A stretch of 64,000 bases of DNA from an uncultured delta proteobacterium (GTDB taxonomy: Bacteria > Desulfobacterota > Desulfobacteria > Desulfobacterales > B30-G6): NCBI GenBank assembly GCA_963823335.1, contig CAWGLD010000007.1:1-64000 (forward strand). Reading direction: 5' to 3'. Position numbers and translations under genes: made by a program. Shown in pieces: positions 22,474 to 64,000 of this stretch. Each line of letters starts with the position of its first letter. The stretch's first letter is position 1. The notes below the pieces were generated by a model. The model made no database searches and had not been told where the DNA came from. It saw only the letters and a program-made list of their open reading frames with translations.

Positions 22474-22481
22474 CTTGAACC

Positions 22482-22590
22482 GAAGGGTTCGAGGGTTCAA
22501 GGGGGATACAAGGGTTTGAGGGTGGCTGATAGCTTTTGGCTTTTGGCGCCTAAAAGTCTTCCGTCTAAACGCCTAAAAGGCTAATGAATG
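22482..22590. repeat. Family-D modular repeat inside the moxR operon
   Basis: GGGGATACAAGGGTTTGAGGGTGGCTGA plus the CTAAAAGGCTA module. Confidence 0.7.
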
Positions 22591-22606
22591 AGGTAATATA
22601 GTTAGC

Positions 22607-25442: not shown

Positions 25443-27343
25443 CATTTACAAACATCTGGATCCTGCATTTTCTCTGGGTCATACCCCTGATCGCTTTTGT
25501 CCTCATGGTTCAGCACCGCAGACGGCAACGGGCCCTGGTCCGGTTTGCCGATCAGCCTCTCCTGAAAAGGCTTACCCCCGAGGACCACAAAGGCAAACGC
25601 TTTTTAAAAGCCCTGCTGCTCCTTTTTGCCTTAGGAACCCTGATCTTTGCCTTGGCCGGACCCCGTTGGGGGAGTCACTATCAGGAGGTGCGTCGCAAAG
25701 GTGTGGACATCATGATGCTGGTGGATGTTTCCCGGAGCATGATGGTTGAAGACGTGGAACCCAATCGCCTGGAGCGGGCCACAAGAGAGATCATCGATTT
25801 TCTCAAGGTCGTTGAAGGCGACCGGGTGGGTTTGACGGTTTTTGCAGGCACTGCCTTTGTTCAATGCCCCCTCACCCTCGATTATGGAGCCCTGGAGATG
25901 TTTTTAAATGTGCTTCAGCCAGGCAGTATCCCGGTGCCGGGAACCGATCTTGGCACAGCCATCGAAACAGGGTTGTCCGCTTTCGATACCAGGGCAGAAA
26001 CCGACAAGGTCATGTTATTGATCACCGATGGGGAGGACAATGAAAACCGCGCTCTGGAAGCCGCCCGAAAAGCAGCAGACCAGGGGGTCAAAATATTCGT
26101 TTTCGGCATGGGCGATCCATCCGGCGGCCCCATACCCGCCGGAAGTGACCAGGGCGGGTTCAAAAAGGACGAGAGCGGTAACCTGGTGCTGTCCAGGCTC
26201 GATGAAAAAACCTTACAGAATATCGCAAATGAAACCGGTGGCGGATATGTCCGCTCCATGGCCGGAGACCTGGACCTGGATCTGCTCTATTTTGACGGCA
26301 TCAAACAAAAAACCCGGGCCCAAACCCTGAAAAGCGGGAAAATCAAGGTTTATGAAGAACACTTCAATCTATTTGTGCTGGCTGCCTTTTTTTTACTGCT
26401 TTTTGAAGAACTGCTGGACACCAAAAGGCGTATCAATGGCCAAAGAAAATTCTGGTTCTTTTCGCTGGTCCTGGTTTTTGCTCTCACCTCCTGGTTTGAT
26501 ATATCCCCGGTCTCGGCGGCTGAATCTCCGGATGCGCTTTATCGGCAGGGACGCTATGAGGAGGCAGGCCAGGTATATACACGGCAGGATATGGATCATC
26601 CCAAAGATATCCGTTTTCGTTACAATCGCGGGTGTGCCGCCTTTCAGAACGGTCAATACACGGAAGCATCGGCTGCCTTTTCCAGTGTCTTCAAAAGGAC
26701 AGAAAATACGGAAGTACGATTCAAGGCCGTTTTTAATCTGGGTAACACCGCTTTCAAACAGGGTGATTACGTCTCTGCCATTGCCTATTATAAGCAGGCA
26801 CTCGTTGAACAGCCCTCCAGCGAGAATGCGCGCTACAACCTCGAACTTTCCCTGAGACTCCTGAAAAAAGAAAAAGAAAAACAAGAACAGGCACAACAAG
26901 ACGGGCCCCCATCCGACACAGCGCCCCCGGGAGACGACCAGGAAAAAAGGGCGGAAACCGACAAACAGGGCCAAAGAGATCAGCCACCAGAAAAAAAACC
27001 ACAACAAAATGACCAGGGAAAAGATGGCCCTCAAAAAGCAGAGGACCAAAGACCTGTAAAAAACGAGAAAGAGCAGTCCAACGACGGTCAGAATCAGACC
27101 ACGGCCCAAAACAAACCACCTGAACCAGAAGAGACACAGACGCTTTCCGGAGAGCTGAAAGCGCGTGAAACTATGCCTGAACCGCTATCGAACGCCCTCC
27201 TAGAAGGAGAAACGTCATCCGGTGTCGACAGAAAGAAAGCCCAGGCGCTGCTGGACAACGTACAGGAAGATCCGTCTGGATTAATGCGCTTTATGGTATC
27301 TGATGATAATCACCAAAATTCTTTTTCCGGAAGGGACTGGTAG
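25439..27343 (+). CDS. batB: BatB-BatC fusion (VWA + TPR + Q/E/K-rich tail)
   Basis: ALAGPRWG, DVSRSM, ITDGED, TPR motifs (YNRG, FNLGN, ARYNLEL), C-terminal RDW. Confidence 0.85.
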   Translation: MTFTNIWILHFLWVIPLIAFVLMVQHRRRQRALVRFADQPLLKRLTPEDHKGKRFLKALLLLFALGTLIFALAGPRWGSHYQEVRRKGVDIMMLVDVSRSMMVEDVEPNRLERATREIIDFLKVVEGDRVGLTVFAGTAFVQCPLTLDYGALEMFLNVLQPGSIPVPGTDLGTAIETGLSAFDTRAETDKVMLLITDGEDNENRALEAARKAADQGVKIFVFGMGDPSGGPIPAGSDQGGFKKDESGNLVLSRLDEKTLQNIANETGGGYVRSMAGDLDLDLLYFDGIKQKTRAQTLKSGKIKVYEEHFNLFVLAAFFLLLFEELLDTKRRINGQRKFWFFSLVLVFALTSWFDISPVSAAESPDALYRQGRYEEAGQVYTRQDMDHPKDIRFRYNRGCAAFQNGQYTEASAAFSSVFKRTENTEVRFKAVFNLGNTAFKQGDYVSAIAYYKQALVEQPSSENARYNLELSLRLLKKEKEKQEQAQQDGPPSDTAPPGDDQEKRAETDKQGQRDQPPEKKPQQNDQGKDGPQKAEDQRPVKNEKEQSNDGQNQTTAQNKPPEPEETQTLSGELKARETMPEPLSNALLEGETSSGVDRKKAQALLDNVQEDPSGLMRFMVSDDNHQNSFSGRDW

Positions 27344-27344
27344 G

Positions 27345-29102
27345 ATGAAAAAGATAATCCCGGGCATCCTGTGCTTCCTCTTATTTCCCCTGTTCACTGT
27401 CTGGGCGGCGGACGACGTGACGGTCTCGCTCCGGCTCGATCGGGTAGAGGCAAGCCTGTCAGACACCGTACGCATGGAGATACGTGTTTCCGGATCCCGT
27501 AAAAGCGATGCGCCTCCCGTACTCCAGGGTCTGGAATCCTTTCTGGTAACCACCGGAGGAACCTCCAGCCGGGTGGAGATCATCAATGGCAAGGTCAATT
27601 CGGGCGTCGACTACACCTATTTCATCCAGCCTAAAAAATCCGGCACGTTCAAAATAGGGCCCGTCAGGGTAAGCGTAGGTGGGAAAATATTTGAGAGCGA
27701 GAGCACCTCCCTGGTGATCAGGGCGGCGACACAATCCAGTGGTTCAGACCCCGGACCGGTATTTGTCAAAGCGTCCGTCTCGTCACAGGAGTTATATGTG
27801 GATGAACAGATTACTTACACCCTGAAACTCTATTACCGGGTCAGCGTTGGCAATCTCTCCTTGAGTCTGCCTGAAATGGAATATCTTACCTTCCAGCAGC
27901 TCGGCCGGCCTATAGAATACAAATCCACATACCAGGGCCTGACGTATCAGGTATTGGAGGTTCGTCACGCACTGATGGTTTCAAAGCCGGGCGCGTTTGT
28001 CATCAATCCTTCCCAACTTAGAATGACCGTGAGTCAGCCCGGTTCCCGCTCCAGGTCCGGCAATTTTTTCAATAACTTCCCCGGTTTCTCATCGAACAGG
28101 CCTTTGACATTGACCACCGACCCCATCGATTTGCACGTGAATGCGCTTCCCAGAGAAGGTAGGCCCACTGATTTTACGGGACTCGTGGGCAGGTTTCAGA
28201 TGATATCCACGCTGGAGCCTTCCCGTTTAAAGGCAGGTGAATCCGCTACCCTGACCATTCAGGTCAAAGGCAGGGGTACCGTGAATCGCATACCTGATCT
28301 GGATCTCCCTGAAATAGATTTTGTGCGAACGTATAGCGATCAACCGGTTCTGGAAATCGAGCAGGGTCAAGAGGGAATCACGGGTACAAAAACCATGAAG
28401 TGGGCCCTGGTTCCTGAAAAGTCCGGCGAGTACGAAGTTCCAATTTTGTCTATGAGTTTTTTTGATCCGCAAACAGGAGCTTATCATAGCCTGGTTACCC
28501 CCGCACATGATTTATCCGCTTTGCCCGGCAAGCCAGAAAACAGTGTCGCCAGCATGAATCCCCAATCCGACAAAAACAATACTGCCCAAGAGACGCTAAA
28601 AAAAGAGATTCAGCAGCTGGGAGAAGATATATTGCCGATTCACACCGATGCCGTGGCGCTCACCCTTCCCTTTGGTTCTCTTGCCAGGGGCTGGATCTTC
28701 TGGCTTGCGCTGCTGGGCCCCCTGTCCATGTATCTGCTTCTTTTAGGTGTCTTGAGAGTGCAACGTCTGTCACCTGAACGACTGGCCCAATCAAGAACAA
28801 GAAATGCCTTTAGCACTTTCAAACGGCGCTGCCGGAAAGATCAAATCAGCTACGCTGATCTCATCGACGCCTTCAAGGAGTATCTGAACGACCGCTGTGG
28901 CCTGTCCATCGGCACACTGACGGCGAATGATGCTGAAAGGATTTTGCGGGGTCAGGGTGTGAATGCTGAAACGACGAAAAGCATGTATTTACTGATCCAA
29001 CGGTTTGAAACGGCCGTGTATGCAGGCAATAATCTCAAGGATACAACGGCCACCGACCATCTGCTGGATCTTGTCAAAAAAATAGAAAAGGATATTTCAT
29101 GA
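27345..29102 (+). CDS. batD: BatD-family protein
   Basis: Signal, SSRVEIING, FTGLVGRF, GRGT, FFDP.TG.Y; operon context. Confidence 0.85.
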   Translation: MKKIIPGILCFLLFPLFTVWAADDVTVSLRLDRVEASLSDTVRMEIRVSGSRKSDAPPVLQGLESFLVTTGGTSSRVEIINGKVNSGVDYTYFIQPKKSGTFKIGPVRVSVGGKIFESESTSLVIRAATQSSGSDPGPVFVKASVSSQELYVDEQITYTLKLYYRVSVGNLSLSLPEMEYLTFQQLGRPIEYKSTYQGLTYQVLEVRHALMVSKPGAFVINPSQLRMTVSQPGSRSRSGNFFNNFPGFSSNRPLTLTTDPIDLHVNALPREGRPTDFTGLVGRFQMISTLEPSRLKAGESATLTIQVKGRGTVNRIPDLDLPEIDFVRTYSDQPVLEIEQGQEGITGTKTMKWALVPEKSGEYEVPILSMSFFDPQTGAYHSLVTPAHDLSALPGKPENSVASMNPQSDKNNTAQETLKKEIQQLGEDILPIHTDAVALTLPFGSLARGWIFWLALLGPLSMYLLLLGVLRVQRLSPERLAQSRTRNAFSTFKRRCRKDQISYADLIDAFKEYLNDRCGLSIGTLTANDAERILRGQGVNAETTKSMYLLIQRFETAVYAGNNLKDTTATDHLLDLVKKIEKDIS

Positions 29103-29902
29103 TCAGGCAGGTCCGGCTCATAAGCAGTGCTATACTGGTGCTGGTATGCTTTTTAAACATGGCCCAGGCAAGCACCGGCCCGTCTTTTGTGGAACAGTTT
29201 TTTGAAGCCAACCAGGCTTATAAGAACCATCAGTTTCAACAGGCCATAGATGGCTATCTCAATCTGATTGAAAACGGGCTTGAAAATGGGCAGGTATACT
29301 ACAATCTGGGTAACGCATACTTTCGAGCGGGAGACCTGGGAAGGGCCATCCTGTCTTATGAAAGAGCACACCTCCTGATCCCACGGGACGGGGATCTGGC
29401 CTTTAATCTTTCCCATGCAAGAAACCAGACCCAGGATGCTGCTATGGATTTGCAGATGTCTTTATTCGGCGACTTTCTGGGCCTCGGTGGCCTCAACCGG
29501 TATGAAGTTTTTTTCGCGTTTACCCTCTTGAACCTCCTGTTCTTCGCTCTTCTCTGTATAAGACTTTTCAAAAAAGCCGAGTGGACATATTACCTGTCAA
29601 TTTTCCTGGCCTTCGTTATCAGTATCGGGGGATGCGCAGTGGCATTGAAGTGGGGCGCGTGGGCGATCGATAACCGTGCCGTGGTGTTATCCGAGGAAAT
29701 CGTGGTGCAGGCCGGGCCGGAATCCAGAGACACGGTGTTGTTTAAACTTCACGCCGGGGCGGTGGTGCGTGTTGAACGCACTGAGAACGATTGGACCCTG
29801 CTGCAGCTGTCAGAAGGCAAAAGAGGCTGGGCTCAATCGCATCAATTGGAGCGCGTCATCAAAAGAACGGACCTGCAAACCAAACAAAGGCAGTACAGTT
29901 AA
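29099..29902 (+). CDS. batE: BatE-like TPR + SH3 protein
   Basis: YYNLGNAYFR, AILSYERA, C-terminal SH3-like FKLHAG..GW. Confidence 0.85.
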   Translation: MIRQVRLISSAILVLVCFLNMAQASTGPSFVEQFFEANQAYKNHQFQQAIDGYLNLIENGLENGQVYYNLGNAYFRAGDLGRAILSYERAHLLIPRDGDLAFNLSHARNQTQDAAMDLQMSLFGDFLGLGGLNRYEVFFAFTLLNLLFFALLCIRLFKKAEWTYYLSIFLAFVISIGGCAVALKWGAWAIDNRAVVLSEEIVVQAGPESRDTVLFKLHAGAVVRVERTENDWTLLQLSEGKRGWAQSHQLERVIKRTDLQTKQRQYS

Positions 29903-50712: not shown

Positions 50713-52560
50713 ATGAATTCTAATTGGCTAGATAAACTGGTATCACCGGAAGAGGTCCTGAGGCATATCAAACCTGGTATGACCATTTTTCTCGGAAGTG
50801 GTTTTGCTGAGCCTCGAACCCTTATGAAAAGTCTTATTGAGTCTGGACTCCCTGATACAAATGATTTGGAATTTATCCAACTGACAAGCTACAGTGACTT
50901 TTTATCACTGAACAATATGGACTATGGGAAATACCGGTTGAAAACATTTTTCTCCAGCTGGGTATCCAGCGAGGCCGTTATCAGCAACAGTGTCGATCTC
51001 ATTCCAGCCAGAATTTCCCAACTCCCTAAAATCATCAAGTCCAACCGGATTCCCATAGATGTCGCTTTTATCCAGATTACACCGCCGGATGAAGCAGGCT
51101 ATTGCAGCTTAGGGGTCGCCGTGGATATTGCCAGAGAGGCCATGGAAAAGGCCAAACTGGTAGTAGCAGAGGTCAATACCAAACTTCCCTTTACCTTCGG
51201 AGATACCATTGTATCCCTCGCCGATTTTGATCTTGTTGTAAAGTCAACTGAGCTGCCTACTTATTACAAACCCAAACCGGTCAGGCCTGTCATCGATCAA
51301 GTGGCAGCCAATATGGCCCAGCTGATAAAAGATGGGGACTGTATCAGCTTCCTGGTAGGGCCGCTCTTCGAAGCTCTCGGCCGTCACCTGGATAAAAAAC
51401 GACACTTGGGGATACACACCCCTTATTTTTCAGACGCATTGATGGCCCTGGTGAAAAACGGCATCGCAACCAACTACCGTAAACCCCAGTACCGGGGAAA
51501 ATCCGTTGCCTCCTATGCACTGGGAACACCGGCCTTGATGCAGTGGTTGGACCGCAATCCGCTTGTAGAATTCCAGAGTGTCGAGCAGGTGTTCGATCCC
51601 ATCCAGATCGGCCGCATCCCCAATTTTGTGGTTGTCAACGAAGCGAATAAAGTAGACCTGCTTGGACGAATCGCCTTTACCGTGGGCAAAAACGATATCA
51701 CTGCCGGACCCGGCAAAAGTGCTGACCTTTTTGCCGGAACCGAAATGTCCCCGGGTGGACGAAACATCATCGGTCTGCCCAGCAGGAATGCCATGGGGAA
51801 GCCCAATGTCGTGGTCATGCTCAAAAGTCTTCGTAATCAGTTTCACATGCGTGAATCCATCGACGCCGTTGTAACCGAATACGGCATTGCCAACCTGAAA
51901 TGGCGCACCATCAGAGAAAGAGCCCAGGCCTTGATCGACATCGCCCACCCGGATGACAGAAAAAAACTGATGGAAGATGCCAAGGCAAAAAGGATAATTT
52001 TCCTGGATCAGATTTTTCTCTCGGACAGCGCCCGACTGTATCCCAGCGAAGCTGTTAACGAACATGTGATGAAGAACGGGCTGCCGGTTCGGTTCCGACC
52101 TATCAAGCCGTCTGACGAAGAAGCCATGCGGCGCTTTTTCTACCGTTTTTCTAAGCAATCCATTTTCCGTCGATTCTTCTTTCCGGTTTCAACCATGCCC
52201 CATAATAAAATGCAGACCTACGTCAATGTCGACTACCGCAGCGAAATGTCCATAGTGGCCTTGATCCATGAGCCCGGGCAGGAAATCATTATCGCTGAAG
52301 CAAGATATGCCAAAGATGAGGAGAATGGTTTTGGTGATCTGGCCTTCTTTGTGGACGAAAAATATCAAGGACTGGGCATCGCGCCGTATCTCTATGACTT
52401 GCTGACTCGCCTAGCCAAGGATCGAGGACTGAGAGGGTTTACAGCTGAAGTGATGCAGGAGAACAAAGGTATGCTAACGGTCTTTGAAAAAAGTGGACTG
52501 CCAATGGAAGCTTTGTTAAAAAACGGTATTTACAAGCTGAGAATGCCTTTTGATGAATAA
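50713..52560 (+). CDS. Acetyl-CoA hydrolase/transferase-family domain fused to a GNAT domain
   Basis: PPDEAGYCSLGV, VVTEYGIANL, ERAQALIDIAHPD; GNAT RFRPIKPSDE..YQGLGIA. Confidence 0.88.
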   Translation: MNSNWLDKLVSPEEVLRHIKPGMTIFLGSGFAEPRTLMKSLIESGLPDTNDLEFIQLTSYSDFLSLNNMDYGKYRLKTFFSSWVSSEAVISNSVDLIPARISQLPKIIKSNRIPIDVAFIQITPPDEAGYCSLGVAVDIAREAMEKAKLVVAEVNTKLPFTFGDTIVSLADFDLVVKSTELPTYYKPKPVRPVIDQVAANMAQLIKDGDCISFLVGPLFEALGRHLDKKRHLGIHTPYFSDALMALVKNGIATNYRKPQYRGKSVASYALGTPALMQWLDRNPLVEFQSVEQVFDPIQIGRIPNFVVVNEANKVDLLGRIAFTVGKNDITAGPGKSADLFAGTEMSPGGRNIIGLPSRNAMGKPNVVVMLKSLRNQFHMRESIDAVVTEYGIANLKWRTIRERAQALIDIAHPDDRKKLMEDAKAKRIIFLDQIFLSDSARLYPSEAVNEHVMKNGLPVRFRPIKPSDEEAMRRFFYRFSKQSIFRRFFFPVSTMPHNKMQTYVNVDYRSEMSIVALIHEPGQEIIIAEARYAKDEENGFGDLAFFVDEKYQGLGIAPYLYDLLTRLAKDRGLRGFTAEVMQENKGMLTVFEKSGLPMEALLKNGIYKLRMPFDE

Positions 52561-52569
52561 TCGGTGGAA

Positions 52570-53673
52570 TTATGTCATATAAACACCATATTTGTGAACA
52601 GCCTCAACGGCCGCTCGAACATTCTCCAAGGGGGTAGTTGGGCCGATGTTGCATAGATACAGGCAAAAGTGCCCGTTTTTCCCACCGATTTCGATGTACT
52701 GTTTCACCCGCTCGGCTACTTCCACGGGTTTACTCAAGGCCAGAAAACCGGCACCAATGCCAAGCACCAGAGCAACCCTGTTTTTTTCAGCATAGGCCTT
52801 GTAAACTGCAGGGCCGATTTTGGCCACATCTGGATCCTGACCTTCCACAAAATCCGGGCAAACCCGAAGCTTTAAATCGAGAAGTTCTTCAGGTCTTCGC
52901 AGATAACTTTCACCGACCCAGTTAGGCACATAAACCTGTGGACCGCAAATCTCCCGCAATCTGAGAATATAGGGGATAATCCAGTCCTGCAGAATAGAGG
53001 TGTTGACAATGGGCAACGAGGCCATTGCATCACTTCCGCATATACTCCGGGCTGTTGGAAACTTCTCTTTAAGGTAAAGGATCCAGGGGATGATCACATC
53101 TTCGGTAAACCGATCAAAAAGTTCCTTGGCAAAGGTGGGGTCCGTCATGATATCCATGATCAACCGTTCAACGCCTCGTGCATTCGCTGCCATGGTAAAG
53201 GGTGCACAAAAGTTCAGCGTCGGATCCTTATCGACCCACTCACGGTATAGGGTGTTCATTTCAACAACCATGGGGAAGCGCCCGTCTGTCGTGAAATCGG
53301 GCGTTTGGATCTTTTTCAGGTCATTCCAGTTTTTAATCAACGGGTCAGTGCGGTCAACATCAGGCGAATTATGCTTGCTGTAAATTATTTTCTGTCCAAT
53401 CGCCTCAACTTCAATATTGTAAATATCATAATCCAATAAAGGAACGTCCAGATCATATTTATGCGCCGTTGATAAAATTGCTGAAACCAGACATTGCGGA
53501 TCTGAAAAGAATTCCGGGGCATCGAGACCGGATTCTTTCATTGCCAGTTCATGAATTTGAGCAAAGACCGGAACCCGGTCCGGTATGCCTGTCAAGGCAT
53601 TTTCCAGACGGGTAATCCCTTCCTTAAAAAACGCATAATCGGGCGACCCGGCGCTGTTCAAGGAAGGTTTCAA
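52570..53673 (-). CDS. Uroporphyrinogen decarboxylase / MtaA-CmuA superfamily protein
   Basis: PDRVPV, EVEAIG, DGRFP, APFT.A..RG, TPLENVRA; abuts the upstream stop codon. Confidence 0.8.
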   Translation of the reverse strand: MKPSLNSAGSPDYAFFKEGITRLENALTGIPDRVPVFAQIHELAMKESGLDAPEFFSDPQCLVSAILSTAHKYDLDVPLLDYDIYNIEVEAIGQKIIYSKHNSPDVDRTDPLIKNWNDLKKIQTPDFTTDGRFPMVVEMNTLYREWVDKDPTLNFCAPFTMAANARGVERLIMDIMTDPTFAKELFDRFTEDVIIPWILYLKEKFPTARSICGSDAMASLPIVNTSILQDWIIPYILRLREICGPQVYVPNWVGESYLRRPEELLDLKLRVCPDFVEGQDPDVAKIGPAVYKAYAEKNRVALVLGIGAGFLALSKPVEVAERVKQYIEIGGKNGHFCLYLCNIGPTTPLENVRAAVEAVHKYGVYMT

Positions 53674-56136
53674 TTACATCCGTACCTTTTGACTCATGGG
53701 ATCATACATCGGTTCGAGGTGGATCTCGATGGGAAACAGCTTCCCGGCAACGTTGATTTCATAATCCCCCGCCATGATCCAGTCATCATCGATGCCATCG
53801 GAATGTTTCAGATAACACATTCCGATGGAGCACCCATACAGATGAGAATAGGCGCCATGGGTATTTTCACTCATCAGTTCCCCATTGCGATAGATGGGTT
53901 CATCATGGTAAACTAGCGGTTCGGGGTTTTTTAGTGAGAACATGACCAGCTTGCGTTTCAGACCGGTTTTCTTTTGCCGGGCCAGTGCCTCCTTACCCAG
54001 AAATGATGCTTTCTCCATTTTGACACAGAACCCCAACCCGGATTCGAAAGGTGTCTGATCCGGTGTAATGTCGGCCCCCCAGTGTTTGTAGCCCTTTTCC
54101 AATCGCAGGGAGTCCAGGGCATGCAGACCGACCAGCTGGAGGTTGTATTTTTCTCCTTCCGCCATCAGCGCATCAAAGACGTTATTTGAAAATTCTGTCG
54201 GTATGTACAGTTCCCACCCCAGTTCCCCGACAAACGACATGCGGATGGCCAGCGGTCTTGCATAGGCGACATTGATCTCTTGTGCGGTGGCAAACGGAAA
54301 CGCCGCGTTTGAAAGATCGGCATCGGTCAGATTTTGCAGAAATTCCCGTGCGTTCGGACCCATGACGGCGAGCATTGTGTAGCCGGAGGTCACCTCGGTC
54401 AGGGTCACGAAATCATTTTTCTTGATGTGACGATTTATGGTGTCGAAGTCCCGGACACCACAGGCACCCGGACTGACAATAAAGAATTTGTCTTCAGCCA
54501 GACGTGTAACCGTGATATCCGCTTCGATACCCCCCCGTTCGTTGAGCATCTGTGTGTAGACCACCTTACCAACCGGCACATCCACGTCATTGCAACAAGC
54601 ATATTGCAAGGTCTTCATGGCATCACGCCCCTGAACGAGAAATTTAGCCATGGAGGAGAGATCATAGACACCCAGATTTTCACGTACCGCCATATGCTCT
54701 GCAGCCGAGTATTCGAACCAGTTCTGGCGCCCCCAGCTGTATGCATATACCGGTGTTACACCCTCGGGAGCAAACCAGTTGGCACGCTCCCAGCCGGCCA
54801 CCACACCAAAGCAGGCACCGCGTTGTGCCAGTCTGTCGTGAAATGGCGTCTGACGGACATTTCTGGCGGTCTCCGGTTGTTTAAACGGCCAGTGATCCGC
54901 GTACAGATTGCCAACGGCTTCGATGACACGGTCGTGGACATAGCGCGTATTCTGCTGCCAACCGTAAAAACGCCGTACATCCACGGCCCACAGGTCTTCT
55001 TCGGGATAGCCCTGATCCATCCACTGGGCCAGTGCCCGGCCGGCGCCCCCCGCACTGGTGATGCCCACCGAATTCATACCGGTGGCTACAAAAAGGTTTT
55101 TGACACCGGGAACCTCACCCAGCATGTAAGCGGTATCGGGTGTAAAACTCTCCGGCACCGTTGTGAGGCTGTTAATTTCCGCTGTTTCAAAAGCCGGTAC
55201 TCTTTTTATCGCGTTTTTCATGAATATTTCGAATTGATCCCAGTCTTCCTGGAGCTGGGTATATTGAAAATTTTCCGGAATACCCTGCATACCCCAGGGC
55301 TTGGCCACCGGTTCAAAACCGCCCATAAGAAGACCGCCCATCTCCTCCTTGATATAGATATAGCCATCCATATCCCGCACATACGGCATCCCCTTGTAGG
55401 TTCCCTCCATGGGATTGGTGGTCATGTGCATGTGTTCGGCAGCATACAGCGGAAAGCTGGCACCCATCATCTTACCCAATTCACGCGACCACATACCAGT
55501 GCAATTGACCAGAAATTCACATGCAATGTCCCCCTGGTCGGTGGTAAGCCCGCTGACGGTGTCCAGCCCTGAGACGATGCCGGGTTTAAAATGGACGCCG
55601 GTTACCTTGACGTTCTCGATGAATCTGGCACCACCTTTTCTGGCGCCCTTGGCCAATGCCTGGGTTGTATCTTCGGGGTTGGTGTGTCCGTCGTTCGGCT
55701 GGAACCATGCTGCTTCAAGATCGTCGGTATGCAGCAGGGGAAACAATCTTCGGGCTTCTGTCAGGCTGATTTCTTCCATTTCAATGCCGAATGCACGCGC
55801 CATCTGCATGGATCGATCATATTCTTCTTTGCGTGCCTTGGTCTGTGCGACCCGGATGGAACCAGGACGCTGATAACCCGTAGGCTGCCCGGTCTCCTCT
55901 TCCAGACGGGAATAAAGATCCGCGCCGTAAACAGCGAGTTTGGTCAAGGCGGCATTCGACCAGAGCTGGCCCAGCAAGCCTGCTGCAGCCCAGGTCGTTC
56001 CGGATGCAATCGTTTTACGCTCCACAACCACGACATCCTTCCAGCCTAATTTACACAAGTGGTAAGCGACACTGCAACCGACAATACCACCCCCGACAAT
56101 GACAACCTGCGCGTGTGTGGGTAACTGTTCTGCCAT
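53674..56136 (-). CDS. FAD-dependent oxidoreductase with a GcvT/THF domain (dimethylglycine/sarcosine dehydrogenase family)
   Basis: GGGIVG, SGTTWAAAG, PESFTPD, GWERANWF, GELGWELY, SLRLEKGY; GGAGG RBS before 56136. Confidence 0.9.
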   Translation of the reverse strand: MAEQLPTHAQVVIVGGGIVGCSVAYHLCKLGWKDVVVVERKTIASGTTWAAAGLLGQLWSNAALTKLAVYGADLYSRLEEETGQPTGYQRPGSIRVAQTKARKEEYDRSMQMARAFGIEMEEISLTEARRLFPLLHTDDLEAAWFQPNDGHTNPEDTTQALAKGARKGGARFIENVKVTGVHFKPGIVSGLDTVSGLTTDQGDIACEFLVNCTGMWSRELGKMMGASFPLYAAEHMHMTTNPMEGTYKGMPYVRDMDGYIYIKEEMGGLLMGGFEPVAKPWGMQGIPENFQYTQLQEDWDQFEIFMKNAIKRVPAFETAEINSLTTVPESFTPDTAYMLGEVPGVKNLFVATGMNSVGITSAGGAGRALAQWMDQGYPEEDLWAVDVRRFYGWQQNTRYVHDRVIEAVGNLYADHWPFKQPETARNVRQTPFHDRLAQRGACFGVVAGWERANWFAPEGVTPVYAYSWGRQNWFEYSAAEHMAVRENLGVYDLSSMAKFLVQGRDAMKTLQYACCNDVDVPVGKVVYTQMLNERGGIEADITVTRLAEDKFFIVSPGACGVRDFDTINRHIKKNDFVTLTEVTSGYTMLAVMGPNAREFLQNLTDADLSNAAFPFATAQEINVAYARPLAIRMSFVGELGWELYIPTEFSNNVFDALMAEGEKYNLQLVGLHALDSLRLEKGYKHWGADITPDQTPFESGLGFCVKMEKASFLGKEALARQKKTGLKRKLVMFSLKNPEPLVYHDEPIYRNGELMSENTHGAYSHLYGCSIGMCYLKHSDGIDDDWIMAGDYEINVAGKLFPIEIHLEPMYDPMSQKVRM

Positions 56137-56451
56137 GGGAACCTCCTGCATGGAATCTGAACGATTGGGTAACACTTTAAAAAGAATCATTACAATGGTT
56201 AATGCTTCAACTTTCGGTTTTCACCATCGATAGAGCGAAATGGGTGATCCAATGGCGATTTGCGCTGTTTGAGGCGCTTAGGGATTCTCACATCAGCGCA
56301 TGAAAATAAACATCCAACATGAAAACCTGTCCATTTGGAAACCATGCCTGTTTAACCATATGACCAGCGCTGATGTTAGAAGTCCTTTCGGCGAGTTCGC
56401 AAAGCGCCAGGGGATTATTCATTTCGTGTTCGCTGAACCCATGAAGTTGAG

Positions 56452-57921
56452 TTAACCCACGCCCTGCTCTTTCTCGGCTTCGTCAACGATCTCCCGAATG
56501 TCCTGGAGCACGCTGTCTGAGAGCTGCGGCGGTTCGTACGTCTCCAGGATATCGATCATCTTGTCGTGTGCACGCTGGTAGAGGTCTGTGCTGCCGTCCG
56601 CCTCCCAGTCTTCGCGCATGCGCCGGTCCATCAGTTCGGCTCGGGATTGCGATGCCCTATGTTGATACGTTGATTCATGGGCCAGGTAGTCTTTTCCGAT
56701 GCCCATCTCCCTGATAATGTCCACCGCCAAGGTCTCTTCGTTGACGGGTATACCTTTTACGGTATATTTAATCATTTCTGCAATTTCATTGTCGATGACC
56801 AGCTGTGCTAAATCAAAGGTGATTCCCATTTCGAGCATTCCCAGGCCGTATATGACGTTGGCTCCTGCCAGCGCCGGTAAAATGCCTGTAATGGTCTTTT
56901 CATGTCCCGACTGGGCATCGACCACCTTGCTGTCGCCCTAACCACCGGCGACGAAACACGGCAGACTGTAATAACGCGCCAGCCTTGCGACCGCGGCACT
57001 GATCATACCGGTTTCCGGCGATCCAACGGTTGCGGTAGCCCGGCGCAGGTCCAGCGGGCAGGTGGAGCTGCCATACATAAAGGGAGAGCCCTTGCGGCTC
57101 AGCTGGCTCAGCACCAGGCTGGAAAGCACTTCACAGTTCTGCACAACCAGGGTTCCCGCAAGGTGGATCGGAGCGGAACCCCCGGACATGGCCATGCCGA
57201 TAACGTTCACCCCCAGACCGTGCCTGGCCGCGCCCATGATGATCTCGCAATGGTGATCCGTAAGCTTCAACGGGCTGATGGGGCAGGTGGTAAACGAGAG
57301 CAGCGGCCGTTCTCTCAGCTTCTCCTTGCTTCCTGAAATGGCCACGCATATGTCTACAATTTTCTCCAACTGAAACCCGTTGACCGGGCCCAGCCAGTGA
57401 TGCTTGGTGGTGTTGGTCAGAGAAGCTTCCGCATTGTGGATCGCCTGGACCTCCGGCGGTTTGTCGTGCGAACACATAGCGCGCTCGTAAGTCTCCACGT
57501 TCTCCAGATAATCGATGAGGCGTGACGCTTTTTCGATGTCCGCCTTGGTGGTGTCGCGGTGTTCACCTGTATCGGGATCGACAAAGACAATCCCTTCACC
57601 AAAATTGGTAAACGTCACCCGGTTGTCCTCCAGCACCACGTCACTCTCAGGAATTCTTCCATAGGCAATAAACGTGGCCGGTGCGGTATGAATGGCATCC
57701 TCTACGACAAAATGGGGAATTTTTACGGTGCTACTTTTTGCATCAACCGTACAGCCCGCCCCGTGGTATATTTCAAGGGCTTTTTCATTTTCGACGAATA
57801 CACCGGTATTACTCAAAACTTCCAGTGTCGCCAGATGAATTTCATGAAGCTCGTCATCGGTCATGAGATTGAGACTGAATCCGCTGTTGCGTTTGATACC
57901 GGCTTTTGGTCTACGTTTCAT
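56452..57921 (-). CDS. mttB: Trimethylamine:corrinoid methyltransferase MttB, predicted pyrrolysine-containing (TAG at codon 328)
   Basis: One frame reading VAGG-TAG-GDSKVVDAQSGHEKT; 489 aa with readthrough, colinear with the adjacent paralog; AAGGAGG RBS. Confidence 0.9.
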
Positions 57922-57951
57922 AGTGCCTCCTTGCTCGCCCTATATTTGATT

Positions 57952-59433
57952 TTATTTCTTTTTTTTCACTTCCATCTCGTATGCGTCGACAATCTCTTTC
58001 ATGGCCTCGGAGACTTTGTCAGGCAGGGCATAGGGCTTATGATTTTCAAGGATGTCGATGGCTTTTGCATAAGCGCGATCCCTGATACTTTTGCCTTGCG
58101 TTACATCCATCCAGTCACCCCGCGAGCGTCTGTCGAACAGTTCGACCCGGGATTGGCTCCTCATGTAACGGAGATTCTGTTCGTGGGTGATGTAAGCGCC
58201 GCCGGGGCCGACCTCGTGTATGACATCCATGGCCAGGGTCTCGTCATTGACGACGACACCCCCGAGCGCGATTTGAATCATACGGATCATCTCCGCATCC
58301 ATGATCAGCTTGGCGTAGTCCATGGTGAGTCCCTGTTCCAGAACGCCGGAACCGAAGATGATGTTCCCGCCTGAAAGCGCACTCAGCGTAGCGCTCAGGG
58401 TAAATTCATAACCGGATTGGATATCCGGCTCTTTGCTGTCCGATGCACCGCCGCCCACCCAGCCGGGCAGTCGGTAGTACTGGGCCATTTTGGCAAGCGA
58501 TGCGTTGATCATACCATACTCGGGAGAACCGATGGCGGAGGTGCCGAATCTCAAATCCAGAATCGTGCTGGTGCTGCCATAGGTGCAGGGCAAACCTTTT
58601 TTCACCAACTGGGCCAGGGCGATGGTTGCCAGGACTTCGGCATTGTGGGTTACCAAGGTACCTGCCAGGGAAGCGCTGGCTGTTCCACCGGAGAGAGCCA
58701 TGGGTATGATGAGAATCCCCAATCCGAGCCGGGCGCTCTCTATGATGACGTCGCAGGTATTTTCTCCAAGGGTAAGCGGACTGATGGGGCAGACGTTGAC
58801 CGTAAAAATGGGTCGTTTCTGAAATATTTCCTTGCCACCCACGCACGCCGATGCGAGTTCGACCATTACCTGCAGGGACCTTGCCGAATCTGCACCGAGA
58901 AAGATATGCTTACCGGTGTTGGCCAACATGGCTTCGAGATTGTGCAGAGACTGTGTGCCATCCATGACATCTGTCGAGTTGACCATGCGCTCGGCTACAC
59001 TGATCTCGTCCAGATAGTCGCCTACCCGGACCAGTTCACCACAGTCCTTTTTGGTCGCCCGCCGAACTTTTTTGGTATAGGGATCGATAACGTTGATGCA
59101 GCCGCCGAATGTGGTAAATCCAACACGGTTGGGCTCCATAATAAAGTCGTCGGCTGGGTTCCTGGCATCGTACACAAATGTGTGCGGGGACCTGAAAGCG
59201 GACTCCTCCACCAGAAACGATGGAATTCTCACGATCCCGAAACCCTCATACCTCTCCACCATGGCACCGCCGCCGTGAAATATTTCGAGTGCCTCCTCGC
59301 TCATCACCTTTATCCCGGTGTCCTGGAGGATTTGCAGGGTTGCATAGTGGATCGAATCAAGCTCGTCCCGTGATAATGAGCTCAGCCCCAAGCCCGAAGA
59401 TGCACTGATTCCACTTCTGAAACGTCTTTTCAT
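57952..59433 (-). CDS. MttB-superfamily methyltransferase without pyrrolysine
   Basis: LAGTLVTHNAEVL, YGSTSTILDL, GSPE, WVGGGASDSK; no internal stop; likely start MKRRF at 59433. Confidence 0.9.
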   Translation of the reverse strand: MKRRFRSGISASSGLGLSSLSRDELDSIHYATLQILQDTGIKVMSEEALEIFHGGGAMVERYEGFGIVRIPSFLVEESAFRSPHTFVYDARNPADDFIMEPNRVGFTTFGGCINVIDPYTKKVRRATKKDCGELVRVGDYLDEISVAERMVNSTDVMDGTQSLHNLEAMLANTGKHIFLGADSARSLQVMVELASACVGGKEIFQKRPIFTVNVCPISPLTLGENTCDVIIESARLGLGILIIPMALSGGTASASLAGTLVTHNAEVLATIALAQLVKKGLPCTYGSTSTILDLRFGTSAIGSPEYGMINASLAKMAQYYRLPGWVGGGASDSKEPDIQSGYEFTLSATLSALSGGNIIFGSGVLEQGLTMDYAKLIMDAEMIRMIQIALGGVVVNDETLAMDVIHEVGPGGAYITHEQNLRYMRSQSRVELFDRRSRGDWMDVTQGKSIRDRAYAKAIDILENHKPYALPDKVSEAMKEIVDAYEMEVKKKK

Positions 59434-59731
59434 GACACCCCCTGTCACCAAATATGGTGCTTTGTAGCCGTGTCTGATCTGCTGTATGTCTTCAAAAGTC
59501 TTTGGTAAAATCAGGAATTGAGATAGCAAGAAAGATTTTCAGGATCCAATACCTTTTATTGGTTTTTTAAGCAACTATTTATGATAAAAAAATTCTTGAT
59601 TCCACTTTTTTTTGGTTCAATTAATTTAGTTCAATTAAAAGGTGAATTTCTCAGATCTCTTGACTTTGGTCGCGATACAAATTAGAGTCATTTTTAACTG
59701 CGGCAAGACAATGTGCTATTTATCGTGCATC

Positions 59732-59896
59732 GAAGAACCTCACAGCATGCGAAGCACTGCCGAACGGCAGAACCTACGAAAAATGTTGTGATGTGCGGCA
59801 GTGCTTTGCAGCGACCATAAGAGATTCTGCCTAATTTAGATTCGCTCGCTAACCCCGCAGTAAGCTGCGGGGTTAGCGCAGGCTATTGCGGTTCAA
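59732..59896 (+). repeat. Rearranged family-A element in the divergent promoter region
   Basis: GAAGAACCTCACAGCATGCGAAGCACTGCCGAACGGCAGAACCTACG ... GATTCGCTCGCTAACCCCGCAG ... GCGGTTCA. Confidence 0.8.
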
Positions 59897-59924
59897 ATTT
59901 CAACTTACATAACGTGGTAGAAAA

Positions 59925-60881
59925 ATGAATACAATTCTCAGTTTGGTACTCAAACGACTGGCATTTGGTCTGGTGACCATTATCGTTATCTCAGTTTTAA
60001 TTTTTATCGGGGTGGAGGCGTTGCCCGGAGATCTGACCGAGGCAATTTTGGGACAAAGCGCTTTGCCTGAGACAATAGCGGCCTTTCGCAGGGAACTGAA
60101 ACTGGATCTTCCCCCGCATATCCGCTATTTCGCCTGGCTGGGTGATATAATGCACGGAAACCTCGGCAATTCCCTGGCGAACGGGAGGCCCATTGCTGAT
60201 CTGGTTGGCTGGCGATTTGCCAATACGCTCTTTCTGGCGTCCTCAGCAGCCGTGGTTGCCGTGCCCTTCGCTATTATGCTGGGTATCCTCGCTGCGCTAT
60301 ATCGCAACAGCTTGTTTGACCGGGCCATTTCCATCGCTACACTCAGTACTATTTCCTTTCCCGAGTTCTTTGTGGCCTATATTTTGGTGGCGTTGCTCTC
60401 GGTCAAATTGGTTGTGTTTCCCAGTATTTCAAATATCAACGACGGTATGGCATTTTGGGAAAAGATTCGAGCAATTGTCCTGCCCTGTTTGACCCTGACA
60501 CTGGTGGTTGTCGCTCACATGATGAGACAGACACGTGCGGCCATCATCAACATCCTGGCCAGTCCCTTCATTGAAATGGCTCATCTGAAAGGCATAAAAC
60601 GGTTACGGGTTATCGTGGTGCACGCTTTTCCGAACGCTCTCTCGCCCGTGATCAATGTGGTTGCGTTGAATCTGGCCTATCTGGTTGTGGGTGTGGTGAT
60701 TGTGGAGGTCGTTTTTGTCTATCCGGGTCTGGGGCAGTTGCTGGTGGATTCAGTCTCCAAACGAGATCTTCCGGTCGTACAGGCAAGTTGTCTCATTTTT
60801 GCCGTGATCTACATTAGTCTAAACTTGCTCGCTGACGTACTGTCTATTATCAGTAATCCTCGCATGCGAAATCCTCGATAA
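59925..60881 (+). CDS. Peptide/nickel-family ABC permease (DppB-like)
   Basis: LPGD, GNLGNS, EVVFVYPGLG, RDLPVVQ. Confidence 0.92.
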   Translation: MNTILSLVLKRLAFGLVTIIVISVLIFIGVEALPGDLTEAILGQSALPETIAAFRRELKLDLPPHIRYFAWLGDIMHGNLGNSLANGRPIADLVGWRFANTLFLASSAAVVAVPFAIMLGILAALYRNSLFDRAISIATLSTISFPEFFVAYILVALLSVKLVVFPSISNINDGMAFWEKIRAIVLPCLTLTLVVVAHMMRQTRAAIINILASPFIEMAHLKGIKRLRVIVVHAFPNALSPVINVVALNLAYLVVGVVIVEVVFVYPGLGQLLVDSVSKRDLPVVQASCLIFAVIYISLNLLADVLSIISNPRMRNPR

Positions 60882-60893
60882 GGAGAGCATTCA

Positions 60894-61718
60894 ATGGCGG
60901 TTTTCAAATTATTGAGACAATCACCCTGGAGCGCACGATGCGGCATAGCTATCGTGCTGCTCAATATTGGCGCCGCAATACTCGCACCGGTGGTGGCACC
61001 TTATGGTGAGACTGAAATAACAGGCGATGTCTGGATGTCCATGAGCGGCGACCATCTACTGGGTACCGATCACCTGGGGAGAGACCTGTTCACACGCCTG
61101 CTTTATGGCGCCCGCAACACCATTGCAATCGCTTTTATTACCACCATGCTTTCGTTTGTGGTCGGAACTGTGTGCGGTTTTTTTGCAGCGACGCTGAAAG
61201 GATGGGTCGATCAACTTCTCAGTCGCCTGGTTGACATTCTCATGGCGTTTCCGACCCTCATTTTTGCTTTAATGGCCTTGTCCGTGGTCGGGACATCCAT
61301 TGGTGCCTTGATCCTGGTGATCGCACTGTTGGACTCGACCCGGGTTTACCGCTTGTCACGCGCTGTGGCAATGGACATCGCCGTCATGGAATATGTTGAG
61401 GCTGCACGGCTGCGTGGTGAAAAAACCTGGTGGCTCATGCGCCAAGAAATCCTGCCCAACGCCATGCCGCCACTCGTGGCCGAATTTGGCCTGCGGTTCT
61501 GTTTCGTATTTTTGTTCATCGCCGCATTGTCCTTTCTGGGTCTTGGCATCCAACCGCCTATGGCGGACTGGGGCGGCATGGTCCGGGAAAATTCCGGTGC
61601 GATCACGTTTGGCATTTTCATTCCCTTGTGGCCGGCCGGGGCAATCGCTTTTCTGACAGTGGGTGTCAATTTAATCGTCGACTGGTTTCTACATGTCGCC
61701 AGCGGTTTGAAAGATTAG
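60894..61718 (+). CDS. Peptide/nickel-family ABC permease (DppC-like)
   Basis: HLLGTDHLGRDLF, EYVEAARLRGE, SFLGLGIQPP. Confidence 0.92.
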   Translation: MAVFKLLRQSPWSARCGIAIVLLNIGAAILAPVVAPYGETEITGDVWMSMSGDHLLGTDHLGRDLFTRLLYGARNTIAIAFITTMLSFVVGTVCGFFAATLKGWVDQLLSRLVDILMAFPTLIFALMALSVVGTSIGALILVIALLDSTRVYRLSRAVAMDIAVMEYVEAARLRGEKTWWLMRQEILPNAMPPLVAEFGLRFCFVFLFIAALSFLGLGIQPPMADWGGMVRENSGAITFGIFIPLWPAGAIAFLTVGVNLIVDWFLHVASGLKD

Positions 61719-61745
61719 CCATCAAGCTTATGATACGGTGAATAG

Positions 61746-63401
61746 ATGACGCAATTATTAGAGATGAAAGATATCTGGATTGAGGGATTCAGCGACGAAA
61801 AATGGCGGCCCATCATCAACGGCCTGAACCTTACCTTGGACAAAGGGGAAGTGCTGGGTTTAATCGGGGAATCCGGGGCCGGAAAATCAACCTTCGGCCT
61901 GGCTTCCATGGCTTATACCCGTCAGGGCTGCCGTATATCTTCCGGGTCCATCCTGTTCGATGGCATCGAACTGTTTGGAGCGTCGGAGAAGACCTTGAGA
62001 AAAATCAAAGGTGTTCGGATCGCCTATGTAGCCCAAAGTGCCGCGGCCTCTTTTAACCCGGCGCACCGGCTCATTAAGCAGTATGCAGAGGCTCCCGTTC
62101 AGCACCATATCATGTCCTTTGCAGAGGCTGAAAAGGAGGCCTTCGATATTTATAAACGGCTGCTGCTGCCGGATCCGGAACGCATCGGATACCGGTATCC
62201 GCACCAGGTGTCCGGTGGACAACTGCAACGTGCCATGGTTGCCATGGCAATGGCGTGCAAGCCGGACCTTATCATTTTTGACGAACCGACCACCGCACTG
62301 GATGTGACAACCCAGATTGAAGTTTTGGCCGCAATAAAACGCATCACCCGGCAATTCAATACAGCGGCCATTTACATCACCCATGACCTGGCTGTGGTGG
62401 CCCAGTTGGCAGACCGGATCATGGTGTTGCGCTATGGCAATTTGGTGGAAGAAAACAATGCCCGCCAATTGATTGCCCATCCGAAAGAGGAATACACCCG
62501 TGCCCTTCTTTCCGTCCGAACACTTCGAGAAGACAAGGACCTTTCAAAGACAGAACATGATACCATTCTGGAGGTCGAAAACGTCTCTGCAAGTTACACG
62601 GGCAAGGAGCTGGTCTTACAGGACATAGACCTGATAATCCGGCGTGGCCGGACCGTGGCGCTGGTGGGAGAATCGGGCAGCGGGAAAAGCACCCTGGCCC
62701 GGGTGATCACCGGGTTGCTTCCACCCCTCAAAGGTCGTGTCATTTATGACGGCCAGGATCTGCCACCGGCTTTAAGAAAGCGCAAAAAGGAAAGTCTCAG
62801 GGTGATGCAGATGATTTACCAGATGCCGGACACGGCCCTGAATCCCAGGCAACGGGTCAGCAGGATCATTGGACGCCCCCTTCAGTTTTACTATGGCATT
62901 CATGGCAAGGAGGCCGAGAAACGCGTTCTTGAGTTATTGGATAAGATCGAATTGACGCCAAAATACAAAGATCGATTTCCAGGAGAGCTCTCTGGTGGAG
63001 AAAAGCAACGGATTTGCATTGCGCGTGCTCTGGCAGCCGAACCCGATCTTATTATTTGTGATGAGGTCACCTCCGCCTTAGATCAGCTTGTGGCTGAAGA
63101 TATTTTGAAGCTGCTGCGCAAGCTCCAAAATGACCTGCAGGTGTCATATCTTTTTATTACCCATGATCTGGCCACAGTTAAAGCCATAGCGGATGAAATT
63201 GTGGTCATGCTGCAGGGCAAGATCGTGGAACAGGGCCGTAAAACGGATATTCTGACACCACCTCACCATGAATATACCGACCTGCTGCTGGAATCGGTCC
63301 CGGAGATGGACCCGGATTGGCTCGACGGCGTGCTGGCCGAAAGGGAACGCAAATCCGCCATGGGCATTGCCGTGAAGACAACCTTTATCGAAGAATCTTG
63401 A
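61746..63401 (+). CDS. ABC transporter ATPase with two fused ABC domains
   Basis: GESGAGKST and GESGSGKST; two signature motifs. Confidence 0.93.
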   Translation: MTQLLEMKDIWIEGFSDEKWRPIINGLNLTLDKGEVLGLIGESGAGKSTFGLASMAYTRQGCRISSGSILFDGIELFGASEKTLRKIKGVRIAYVAQSAAASFNPAHRLIKQYAEAPVQHHIMSFAEAEKEAFDIYKRLLLPDPERIGYRYPHQVSGGQLQRAMVAMAMACKPDLIIFDEPTTALDVTTQIEVLAAIKRITRQFNTAAIYITHDLAVVAQLADRIMVLRYGNLVEENNARQLIAHPKEEYTRALLSVRTLREDKDLSKTEHDTILEVENVSASYTGKELVLQDIDLIIRRGRTVALVGESGSGKSTLARVITGLLPPLKGRVIYDGQDLPPALRKRKKESLRVMQMIYQMPDTALNPRQRVSRIIGRPLQFYYGIHGKEAEKRVLELLDKIELTPKYKDRFPGELSGGEKQRICIARALAAEPDLIICDEVTSALDQLVAEDILKLLRKLQNDLQVSYLFITHDLATVKAIADEIVVMLQGKIVEQGRKTDILTPPHHEYTDLLLESVPEMDPDWLDGVLAERERKSAMGIAVKTTFIEES

Positions 63402-63900: not shown

Positions 63901-64000
63901 ATGAATGTTATCTGGATAACGTCGGACTCCTTTAGACGCGACCACATGGGGGCTTATGGCAACAAACAGATTCAAACCCCTTCTCTGGATATGCTGGCAG
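63901..64000 (+). CDS. 5' end of a sulfatase-family protein, runs off the window edge
   Basis: MNVIWITSDSFRRDHMGAYGNKQIQTPSLDMLA is a typical sulfatase N-terminus; GGAG RBS. Confidence 0.8.
   Translation, partial: MNVIWITSDSFRRDHMGAYGNKQIQTPSLDMLA

Follow-up and report, generated by a model that had tools for sequence, protein, structure and literature searches.

The window analysed here, positions 1 to 64,000 of contig CAWGLD010000007.1 from an uncultured delta proteobacterium (assembly GCA_963823335.1), is a stretch of 64,000 nucleotides that carries on its minus strand mttB, annotated here as a pyrrolysine (Pyl)-dependent trimethylamine:corrinoid methyltransferase gene (56452..57921), whose 489 codons run through one TAG. 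The frame starts with an ATG at 57921, 4 nt after a Shine-Dalgarno-like GGAGG recognised from the sequence (57926..57930, minus strand), and closes with a TAA at 56452-56454; the in-frame TAG, at 56938..56940 on the minus strand, is codon 328 and was assigned as the pyrrolysine codon by structure alignment and by its column among homologs. An earlier note on this DNA had quoted the minus-strand codons around the TAG and described one frame of 489 amino acids with a single internal stop, aligning end to end with the neighbouring paralog. On rereading, the quoted codons matched exactly; translation of 56452-57921 (minus strand) agreed, with the TAG at codon 328; and the paralog, a TAG-free MttB-family gene directly upstream on the same strand (57952..59529, 30-nt gap; Pfam MTTB, E 1.8e-91), aligned at 46% identity over query residues 1-485. 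Viewed under genetic code table 11, the mttB frame falls into two open reading frames (ORFs), 56938-57921 (327 amino acids) and 56452-56925 (157 amino acids). As the note had anticipated of ordinary gene callers, both pieces stand as separately called public proteins, the longer in a 184-member cluster in which 8 of the 15 members listed are exactly 327 amino acids long, and the shorter in a 6-member cluster whose members all have 157. The practical value of the finding is one of annotation, in that public gene calls hold mttB as a 327-amino-acid and a 157-amino-acid fragment.

Read through the TAG, the product matches Pfam MTTB (PF06253) at E 1.3e-87 (294.4 bits against a cut-off of 25) and the NCBIfam trimethylamine:corrinoid methyltransferase equivalog TIGR02369 at 717.6 bits (cut-off 525). 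Because the TAG-free neighbour also passes the latter "equivalog" model, with 591.8 bits, a TIGR02369 match alone does not discriminate a Pyl enzyme, and automatic naming would call the neighbour a trimethylamine methyltransferase. The best matches among solved structures are those of Methanosarcina barkeri MttB, 7xcm_A (E 2e-127) and 7xcl_A (E 1.2e-126), over residues 4-485; in the alignments the TAG falls on the "X" that marks Pyl334 in 7xcl_A (context VAGSXSDAKV) and on a K in 7xcm_A, placing the codon at the pyrrolysine position as had been supposed. The structural study of that enzyme names Gly110, Met249 and Tyr364 as the residues around Pyl334 (Li et al., 2023, PMC9842639). Their equivalents in the window mttB, Gly108, Met243 and Tyr358, are all present, and the tyrosine tracks the TAG: among the 19 full-length MTTB paralogs of this one genome, 6 TAG-bearing and 13 TAG-free, the Tyr358 position is Tyr in 6/6 of the former and 1/13 of the latter. 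Within the six TAG paralogs, the Met243 equivalent is kept in all and the Gly108 equivalent in five. In the TAG-free neighbour the Pyl column is occupied by Ala, and Phe takes the place of Tyr364.

The TAG lies in one alignment column in 6/6 TAG-bearing MTTB paralogs of the host genome and in 51/51 TAG-bearing homologs fetched from relatives; A/T or V/I occupies that column in the TAG-free neighbours. Matches to mttB at E ≤ 1e-60 occur in 23 of 41 related genomes, and the 55 best matches hold exactly one TAG each. Selection was measured on the window mttB and nine orthologs, 87-98% identical, with two further orthologs left out. The TAG is invariant in these 10 sequences, which align with 0 gaps. 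The codons before the TAG give a dN/dS of 0.024-0.078 and the 161 codons after it one of 0.039-0.105, with dS reaching above 1.5; purifying selection is the same on the two sides. Two orthologs of the window mttB (L022 in genome G013 and L024 in G012) end in TAG themselves (…GVG-TAG), with more in-frame TAGs a few codons on, and their C-termini could be extended when Pyl-tRNA is abundant. Contigs from four RNA libraries cover both halves of mttB, one of them, of 1025 nt, spanning 56906-57930; with DNA carry-over possible, these contigs establish neither expression of mttB nor retention of the TAG in RNA.

The host genome, a metagenome-type assembly of 4.37 Mb in 11 contigs (the window lies on contig C7), encodes the complete pyrrolysine machinery. 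ARAGORN finds a tRNA-Pyl(CUA) at C2 c[80111,80184], and on the same contig stand PylSc (326.6 bits), PylC (389.6), PylD (251) and PylSn (133.1), all above their NCBIfam cut-offs, in a cluster ordered pylT-pylSc-pylC-pylD-pylSn (G000:C2:76703-80184, locus L015). PylB, also above its NCBIfam cut-off at 455.1 bits, is unlinked from this cluster (G000:C1:1461420-1462460; L016:5406-6488) and is surrounded by genes for a pterin-binding protein, a class-III aminotransferase, an aldehyde:ferredoxin oxidoreductase and a branched-chain ABC transporter. Likewise, no pylB stands between pylSc and pylC in four close relatives (loci L027, L028, L029 and L031), and loci L030, L032 and L033 have the canonical pyl order, with a PylB 46-52% identical to that of the host. 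Next to pylT on C2 lie genes for a B12-binding corrinoid protein and a RamA-like protein, a TAG-bearing mttB and a TAG-bearing mtbB; further small B12-binding proteins are encoded elsewhere in the genome. Counted across the genome, in-frame TAG codons occur in six mttB and five mtbB genes. The sole MtmB-family homolog (G000:C7:374563-375909) has no internal stop and is a Pyl-free relative of monomethylamine methyltransferase; a B12-binding protein gene (C7:376248-376580) lies close to it.

The same genome retains release factor 1 (RF1; 525.9 bits), and 401 of 1912 long ORFs (21%) terminate in TAG, so that UAG is not reassigned genome-wide. Back-up stops are no closer behind TAG-terminated ORFs (median distance 15 codons) than behind the others (15 and 14). 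A selenocysteine (Sec)-containing formate dehydrogenase (G000:C1:1677470-1679476) has one in-frame TGA, kept in 14/14 orthologs, and a tRNA-SeC lies at C6:16589-16686; by its gene content, the genome uses both expanded codons, Sec and Pyl.

Selection on the TAG-bearing genes extends to their synonymous sites. We measured synonymous diversity as pairwise diversity restricted to codons with an invariant amino acid, within orthogroups defined as clusters of at least 70% amino-acid identity (clusters with fewer than 3 members, 7 sequences in all, were left out), and compared four TAG-mttB orthogroups with two TAG-free orthogroups from the same genomes. In the window orthogroup (A), diversity runs at 0.42-0.53 along the gene but at 0.16-0.22 between the TAG and roughly codon +40; the mean over the 45 codons that follow the TAG is 0.225, compared with 0.439 for the remaining codons, and only 5 of 444 blocks are as low. 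The constrained segment, drawn from this diversity profile, comprises codons +0 to +39 (56821..56940, minus strand). Expressed as the ratio of the 45 post-TAG codons to the rest, the dip recurs in every TAG group, at 0.51 in A (5/452 blocks as low), 0.56 in B (4/450), 0.50 in C (9/411) and 0.51 in D (6/355), whereas at the corresponding position the TAG-free groups give 0.97 (group N, that of the neighbour; 125/448) and 1.00 (group V; 138/253). That TAG-bearing groups dip and TAG-free groups do not indicates that the nucleotide-level selection is TAG-specific. The relative diversity, in 5-codon bins, is 1.06 at codons -5..-1 and 0.50 at +0..+4, placing the onset exactly at the TAG, falls to a minimum of 0.27-0.28 at +15..+24, and recovers to 0.89 from +40. 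The dip is deepest at codons of at least 4-fold degeneracy.

A like pattern appears in mtbB, an unrelated protein family. The TAG shares one column in all 40 mtbB sequences, and each of the four orthogroups they form (of 9, 8, 8 and 8; 7 sequences dropped) shows the dip, with ratios of 0.63, 0.54, 0.64 and 0.61 over 30 codons. As a positive control we took the Sec-containing formate dehydrogenase FdhA, in 14 orthologs from the same genomes with the TGA in 14/14, and found a dip of about 15 codons after the UGA, the place expected for a SECIS, at a ratio of 0.50, with 11/646 blocks as low (9 sequences of the family). Several causes of the mttB dip were considered and rejected. An amino-acid composition artefact fails since the dip survives normalisation, observed over expected being 0.50-0.56 in the TAG groups and 0.98-1.04 in the controls; no group has an alternative reading frame that stays open in every one of its sequences; codons of the segment have a relative adaptiveness of 0.74-0.80 and those beyond it one of 0.77-0.80; the synonymous states that are frozen are not the same from one orthogroup to the next, which speaks against gene conversion among paralogs; and C/G, YC and Shine-Dalgarno-like signals all remain at |z| < 1.6, disfavouring anti-Rho (rut-avoidance) or Shine-Dalgarno-like composition. 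Our full-text literature searches found no paper with a paralog-controlled synonymous constraint after a Pyl codon.

The constrained region coincides with a known RNA model. Rfam RF02510 (PYLIS_3) matches 56841-56940 on the minus strand at 75.6 bits (gathering threshold 38), end to end over model positions 1-100 of 100 and starting at the TAG, and the mtbB genes match its Rfam counterpart for that family, RF02509 (PYLIS_2), at 64-84 bits. Both mttB and mtbB have a small candidate hairpin at about nt +70 to +90, at the diversity minimum; in mttB the candidate is UGGC-AGGN-GCCA (56859..56870, minus strand; nt +70 to +81 after the TAG), whose RNAalifold pairs (columns 101-112 of alignment A2) are present in 44/44 sequences without compensatory change. 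On the 40 mtbB sequences, hairpin 1 of PYLIS_2 is poorly conserved, with 71.6% paired, and hairpin 2 is 85.7% paired, with one pair occurring in six types, a pattern that is suggestive only. We searched for a stable hairpin over codons +1..+45 by comparing minimum free energy (MFE) with synonymous shuffles (7 sequences per group, 40 shuffles), and found none consistently: mean z was +0.35 in A, -1.18 in B, -0.63 in D and -2.21 in C, with -1.11 and -0.21 in control groups N and V. Since the same test misses the known SECIS (z +0.96) it is powerless and argues neither way; 60-nt MFE windows gave no consistent signal either (5 sequences per group, 25 shuffles). RNAalifold sliding windows over the 10-sequence orthogroup placed the 5 lowest of 92 around the TAG, a result we set aside, since strong conservation is enough to lower consensus energies. 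A defined RNA structure in the post-UAG segment is not established.

Around mttB, the minus strand continues downstream with a DAO + GCV_T fusion (53674..56190), a dimethylglycine/sarcosine dehydrogenase-like flavoenzyme by its Pfam matches (GCV_T, 3e-83; DAO, 3.5e-73; FAO_M; GCV_T_C), and then with a URO-D / MtaA-CmuA-like protein (52570..53673; Pfam URO-D, 1.7e-23), a candidate methylcorrinoid methyltransferase (MT2) whose NCBIfam MtaA/CmuA-type matches all fall under cut-off. In the 261-nt spacer between mttB and the dimethylglycine dehydrogenase (DMGDH)-like gene (56200-56450) fall most loose ends of the RNA-library contigs, and environmental strains seem to differ there, with the flanking genes colinear. 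Divergently on the plus strand lies an Opp-type ABC transporter with two permeases and a double ATPase (59925..63401; BPD_transp_1, ABC_tran, oligo_HPY). Past position 64000 the methylamine island continues: locus L034 holds two TAG-bearing mtbB genes (G000:C7:65471-66850 and C7:79653-81038), a TAG-free MttB paralog, FAD-linked oxidases, etfBA and an aldehyde dehydrogenase. No RamA-type activase gene was found in the window or at C7:64-92 kb, ARAGORN found no tRNA within the window, and a promoter and terminator scan of 52400-60000 gave counts no higher than shuffles. The tandem of a TAG-bearing mttB and its TAG-free paralog recurs in relatives; a phylogenetic tree leaves the neighbour in a polytomy with the TAG clades, so that we did not retain its derivation by loss of Pyl, and is compatible with a single origin of the TAG label (support 67/73). 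Elsewhere in the window, an unrelated Bat-type aerotolerance operon (21487-29902, plus strand) encodes a MoxR ATPase, DUF58, VWA, BatA-like, BatD and TPR proteins.

Set beside characterised systems, the window gene resembles M. barkeri MttB (PDB 7XCL, 7XCM, 7XCN) in its full-length homology, in the UAG at the Pyl334 column and in keeping the equivalents of Gly110, Met249 and Tyr364 (Li et al., 2023, PMC9842639). It differs in its bacterial host, which has RF1 and a split PylS (PylSn + PylSc), in the replacement of Thr111 by Glu, and in having no adjoining mttC or mtbA. The Pyl-free MtgB of Desulfitobacterium hafniense (PDB 2QNE, 9YCE) belongs to the same fold family and is the best comparison for the TAG-free neighbour; the TAG gene itself scores 428.8 bits against Pyl-MttB and 236 bits against MtgB. 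Closer in kind are the bacterial systems: eight Pyl mttB/mtbB genes with pyl genes are reported from the Olavius delta1 symbiont (Zhang and Gladyshev, 2007, PMC1976440), and marine Deltaproteobacteria are described that have Pyl at codon 327 of 485, use Sec as well and carry Pyl-free paralogs close by (Kivenson et al., 2021, PMC8318568). The window gene, with Pyl codon 328 of 489, and its genome, with multiple Pyl mttB/mtbB copies, a Pyl-free MttB nearby and both Sec and Pyl, are like these. The window locus differs from them by its tandem TAG-free paralog, DMGDH-like flavoenzyme, URO-D-like protein and Opp-type transporter, and its genome by a pylB unlinked from the pyl cluster.

Taking the frame, the Pyl column, the machinery, the conserved TAG and the selection on both halves, all of them demonstrated in these genomes, we consider it very probable that this is an intact gene for a Pyl-dependent MttB whose UAG codon 328 is decoded as pyrrolysine. 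We infer trimethylamine as the substrate, and also the corrinoid partner and what becomes of the methyl group. On this explanation, pyrrolysine would be made from lysine by PylB, PylC and PylD and loaded by the split synthetase PylSn + PylSc onto tRNA-Pyl(CUA), which would decode the UAG in competition with RF1, UAG being an ordinary stop elsewhere in the genome. The Pyl residue, together with Gly108, Met243 and Tyr358, would activate trimethylamine for transfer of a methyl group to a corrinoid protein whose gene lies elsewhere in the genome; from there the methyl group would presumably pass on to tetrahydrofolate and be oxidised. We further propose that the roughly 120 nt from the UAG form a selected cis-acting mRNA element, corresponding to PYLIS_3 in mttB and PYLIS_2 in mtbB, and that Pyl decoding is not context-free, a proposition on which we find ourselves evenly divided. 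Such an element would tip the competition between tRNA-Pyl and RF1, or shield the message while ribosomes wait at the UAG; an effect in raising Pyl incorporation draws its support, which is indirect, from the TAG-specific synonymous constraint.

A number of observations weigh against this account in one or the other of its parts. The Pyl residue and the trimethylamine activity are predicted here from genes alone, and no corrinoid-protein gene occurs in the window or the next 28 kb (C7:64-92 kb). The pyl genes lie off the window's contig, and their co-residence with mttB rests on binning, in a bin 93.9% complete with 4.6% contamination, although relatives carry like gene sets, in favour of co-residence. 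With RF1 present and TAG a common stop, read-through must be partial or conditional. For the post-UAG element, the controls comprise only two orthogroups, and because the groups come from shared genomes and are related to one another, they are not independent. PYLIS_3 also passes its gathering threshold on TAG-free paralogs (58347-58446, 45.3 bits; L034 4164-4261, 42.2 bits), from which it follows that the match reflects mostly coding homology; only the synonymous contrast separates TAG from TAG-free genes, and the PYLIS_3 match does not. Structural evidence is likewise thin: RNAalifold gives the 44 sequences a weak common fold (-11.98 kcal/mol; 18 pairs, none of them compensatory), the Rfam PYLIS_3 structure has 8 pairs with 80.1% of cells paired and one compensatory pair (GC in 30 and AU in 12), its 3-pair helix being only 55.3% paired, and an exhaustive helix search found no helix of at least 4 bp with more than one double change.

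Three other explanations concern the TAG itself. A nonsense mutation might have inactivated one mttB copy among paralogs, as a genome with 19 full-length MTTB genes could tolerate one loss and 21% of its long ORFs end normally in TAG; yet the TAG falls in the Pyl column and is invariant in 10/10 sequences of the orthogroup, the 161 codons after it show dN/dS of 0.039-0.105 without indels at dS up to more than 1.5, and the same column holds the TAG in 51/51 TAG homologs. The invariant column, the low dN/dS and the lack of indels exclude decay, and we regard a pseudogene as extremely improbable. The earlier note had judged this a recoded gene rather than a pseudogene and proposed checking orthologs for the TAG and the genome for pyl genes: the TAG is kept in 10/10 without signs of decay, pylT, pylSc, pylSn, pylB, pylC and pylD were all found, and the judgement holds on the combined weight of dN/dS, gap-free orthologs, shared TAG column and pyl genes. 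Its tentative assignment of the genome to Desulfobacterales also fits, the seven related pylS loci being labelled uncultured delta proteobacterium, Deltaproteobacteria, Desulfobacterales or Desulfobacteraceae. It could instead be that the TAG is only a stop and that polypeptides of 327 and 157 amino acids assemble without pyrrolysine into a split enzyme, as would suit the public calls of both pieces, the presence of RF1 and a GTG 4 codons past the TAG. This GTG, however, is not kept in other TAG orthogroups, the genome holds the full Pyl machinery, and the Pyl-activating Tyr tracks the TAG (6/6 TAG paralogs against 1/13 TAG-free). A plain stop, moreover, would at the divergence of these sequences drift among TAA, TGA and TAG, yet 51/51 homologs have TAG, which excludes a mere stop; a split enzyme is accordingly very unlikely in our estimation. 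An error of sequencing or assembly, conceivable in a metagenome-type genome of 11 contigs, would have had to create the same TAG in 9 independently assembled related genomes and in all 51 TAG homologs fetched, and its probability is vanishingly small.

Whether the synonymous constraint reflects a recoding signal is far less settled than pyrrolysine decoding of codon 328. The constraint could be a by-product of translational accuracy at the active site, RNA stability, avoidance of polarity or an artefact of metagenome-assembled genomes, a substantial possibility that falls just short of an even chance. In its favour, no defined structure with covariation was found, just two control groups are available, and no part of the protein is more conserved than the one that the segment specifies, with amino-acid invariance of 0.80-0.89 there against 0.51-0.74 elsewhere. 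Conservation of the protein, however, does not by itself lower synonymous diversity in group A, where 41 equally conserved blocks elsewhere have a normal mean of 0.439 and a minimum of 0.402 against 0.196 after the TAG. Nor do codon adaptiveness, alike within and outside the segment, an alternative frame or a C/G, YC or Shine-Dalgarno-like compositional signal (all |z| < 1.6) account for the dip, which begins at the TAG itself, recurs in two unrelated protein families and is lacking in adjacent TAG-free genes on the same contigs.

The proposed post-UAG element invites comparison with the bacterial SECIS that follows the Sec UGA, in that both are marked by a synonymous dip of equal depth starting from a recoded stop (0.50 in Sec-FdhA); unlike the Pyl dip of about 40 codons, that of SECIS extends for about 15. 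SECIS has a dedicated factor, SelB, whereas to our knowledge no dedicated SelB-type factor is known for Pyl. No common RNA structure was reported for the Pyl genes by Zhang and Gladyshev (2007, PMC1976440), the mttB region is described as without a common structure by Have et al. (2013, PMC3639795), and no mechanism for targeted Pyl insertion was known according to a 2025 PNAS paper (PMC12626013). Have et al. (2013, PMC3639795), who name the mtmB PYLIS as RF01982, also cite work in which synonymous changes in that element lowered the product. As for Rfam PYLIS_3, the window matches the model end to end, in the very region where synonymous sites are frozen, but the Rfam structure is barely supported in the window family and the model also matches TAG-free paralogs.

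Pyl-dependent mttB genes with paralog expansion are already published for marine Deltaproteobacteria (Zhang and Gladyshev, 2007, PMC1976440; Kivenson et al., 2021, PMC8318568), and the window gene adds one Pyl-dependent trimethylamine methyltransferase to a group with a published trait. What makes this lineage a useful contrast is that it has many TAG orthogroups beside TAG-free paralogs in the same genomes. If true, the proposed cis-acting element would account for how 11 methyltransferase genes with an in-frame TAG, six mttB and five mtbB, can still be expressed in full in a genome in which 21% of long ORFs end in TAG. The TAG-specific synonymous constraint gives the disputed, structure-based PYLIS idea evolutionary support together with a defined 120-nt target for experiment.

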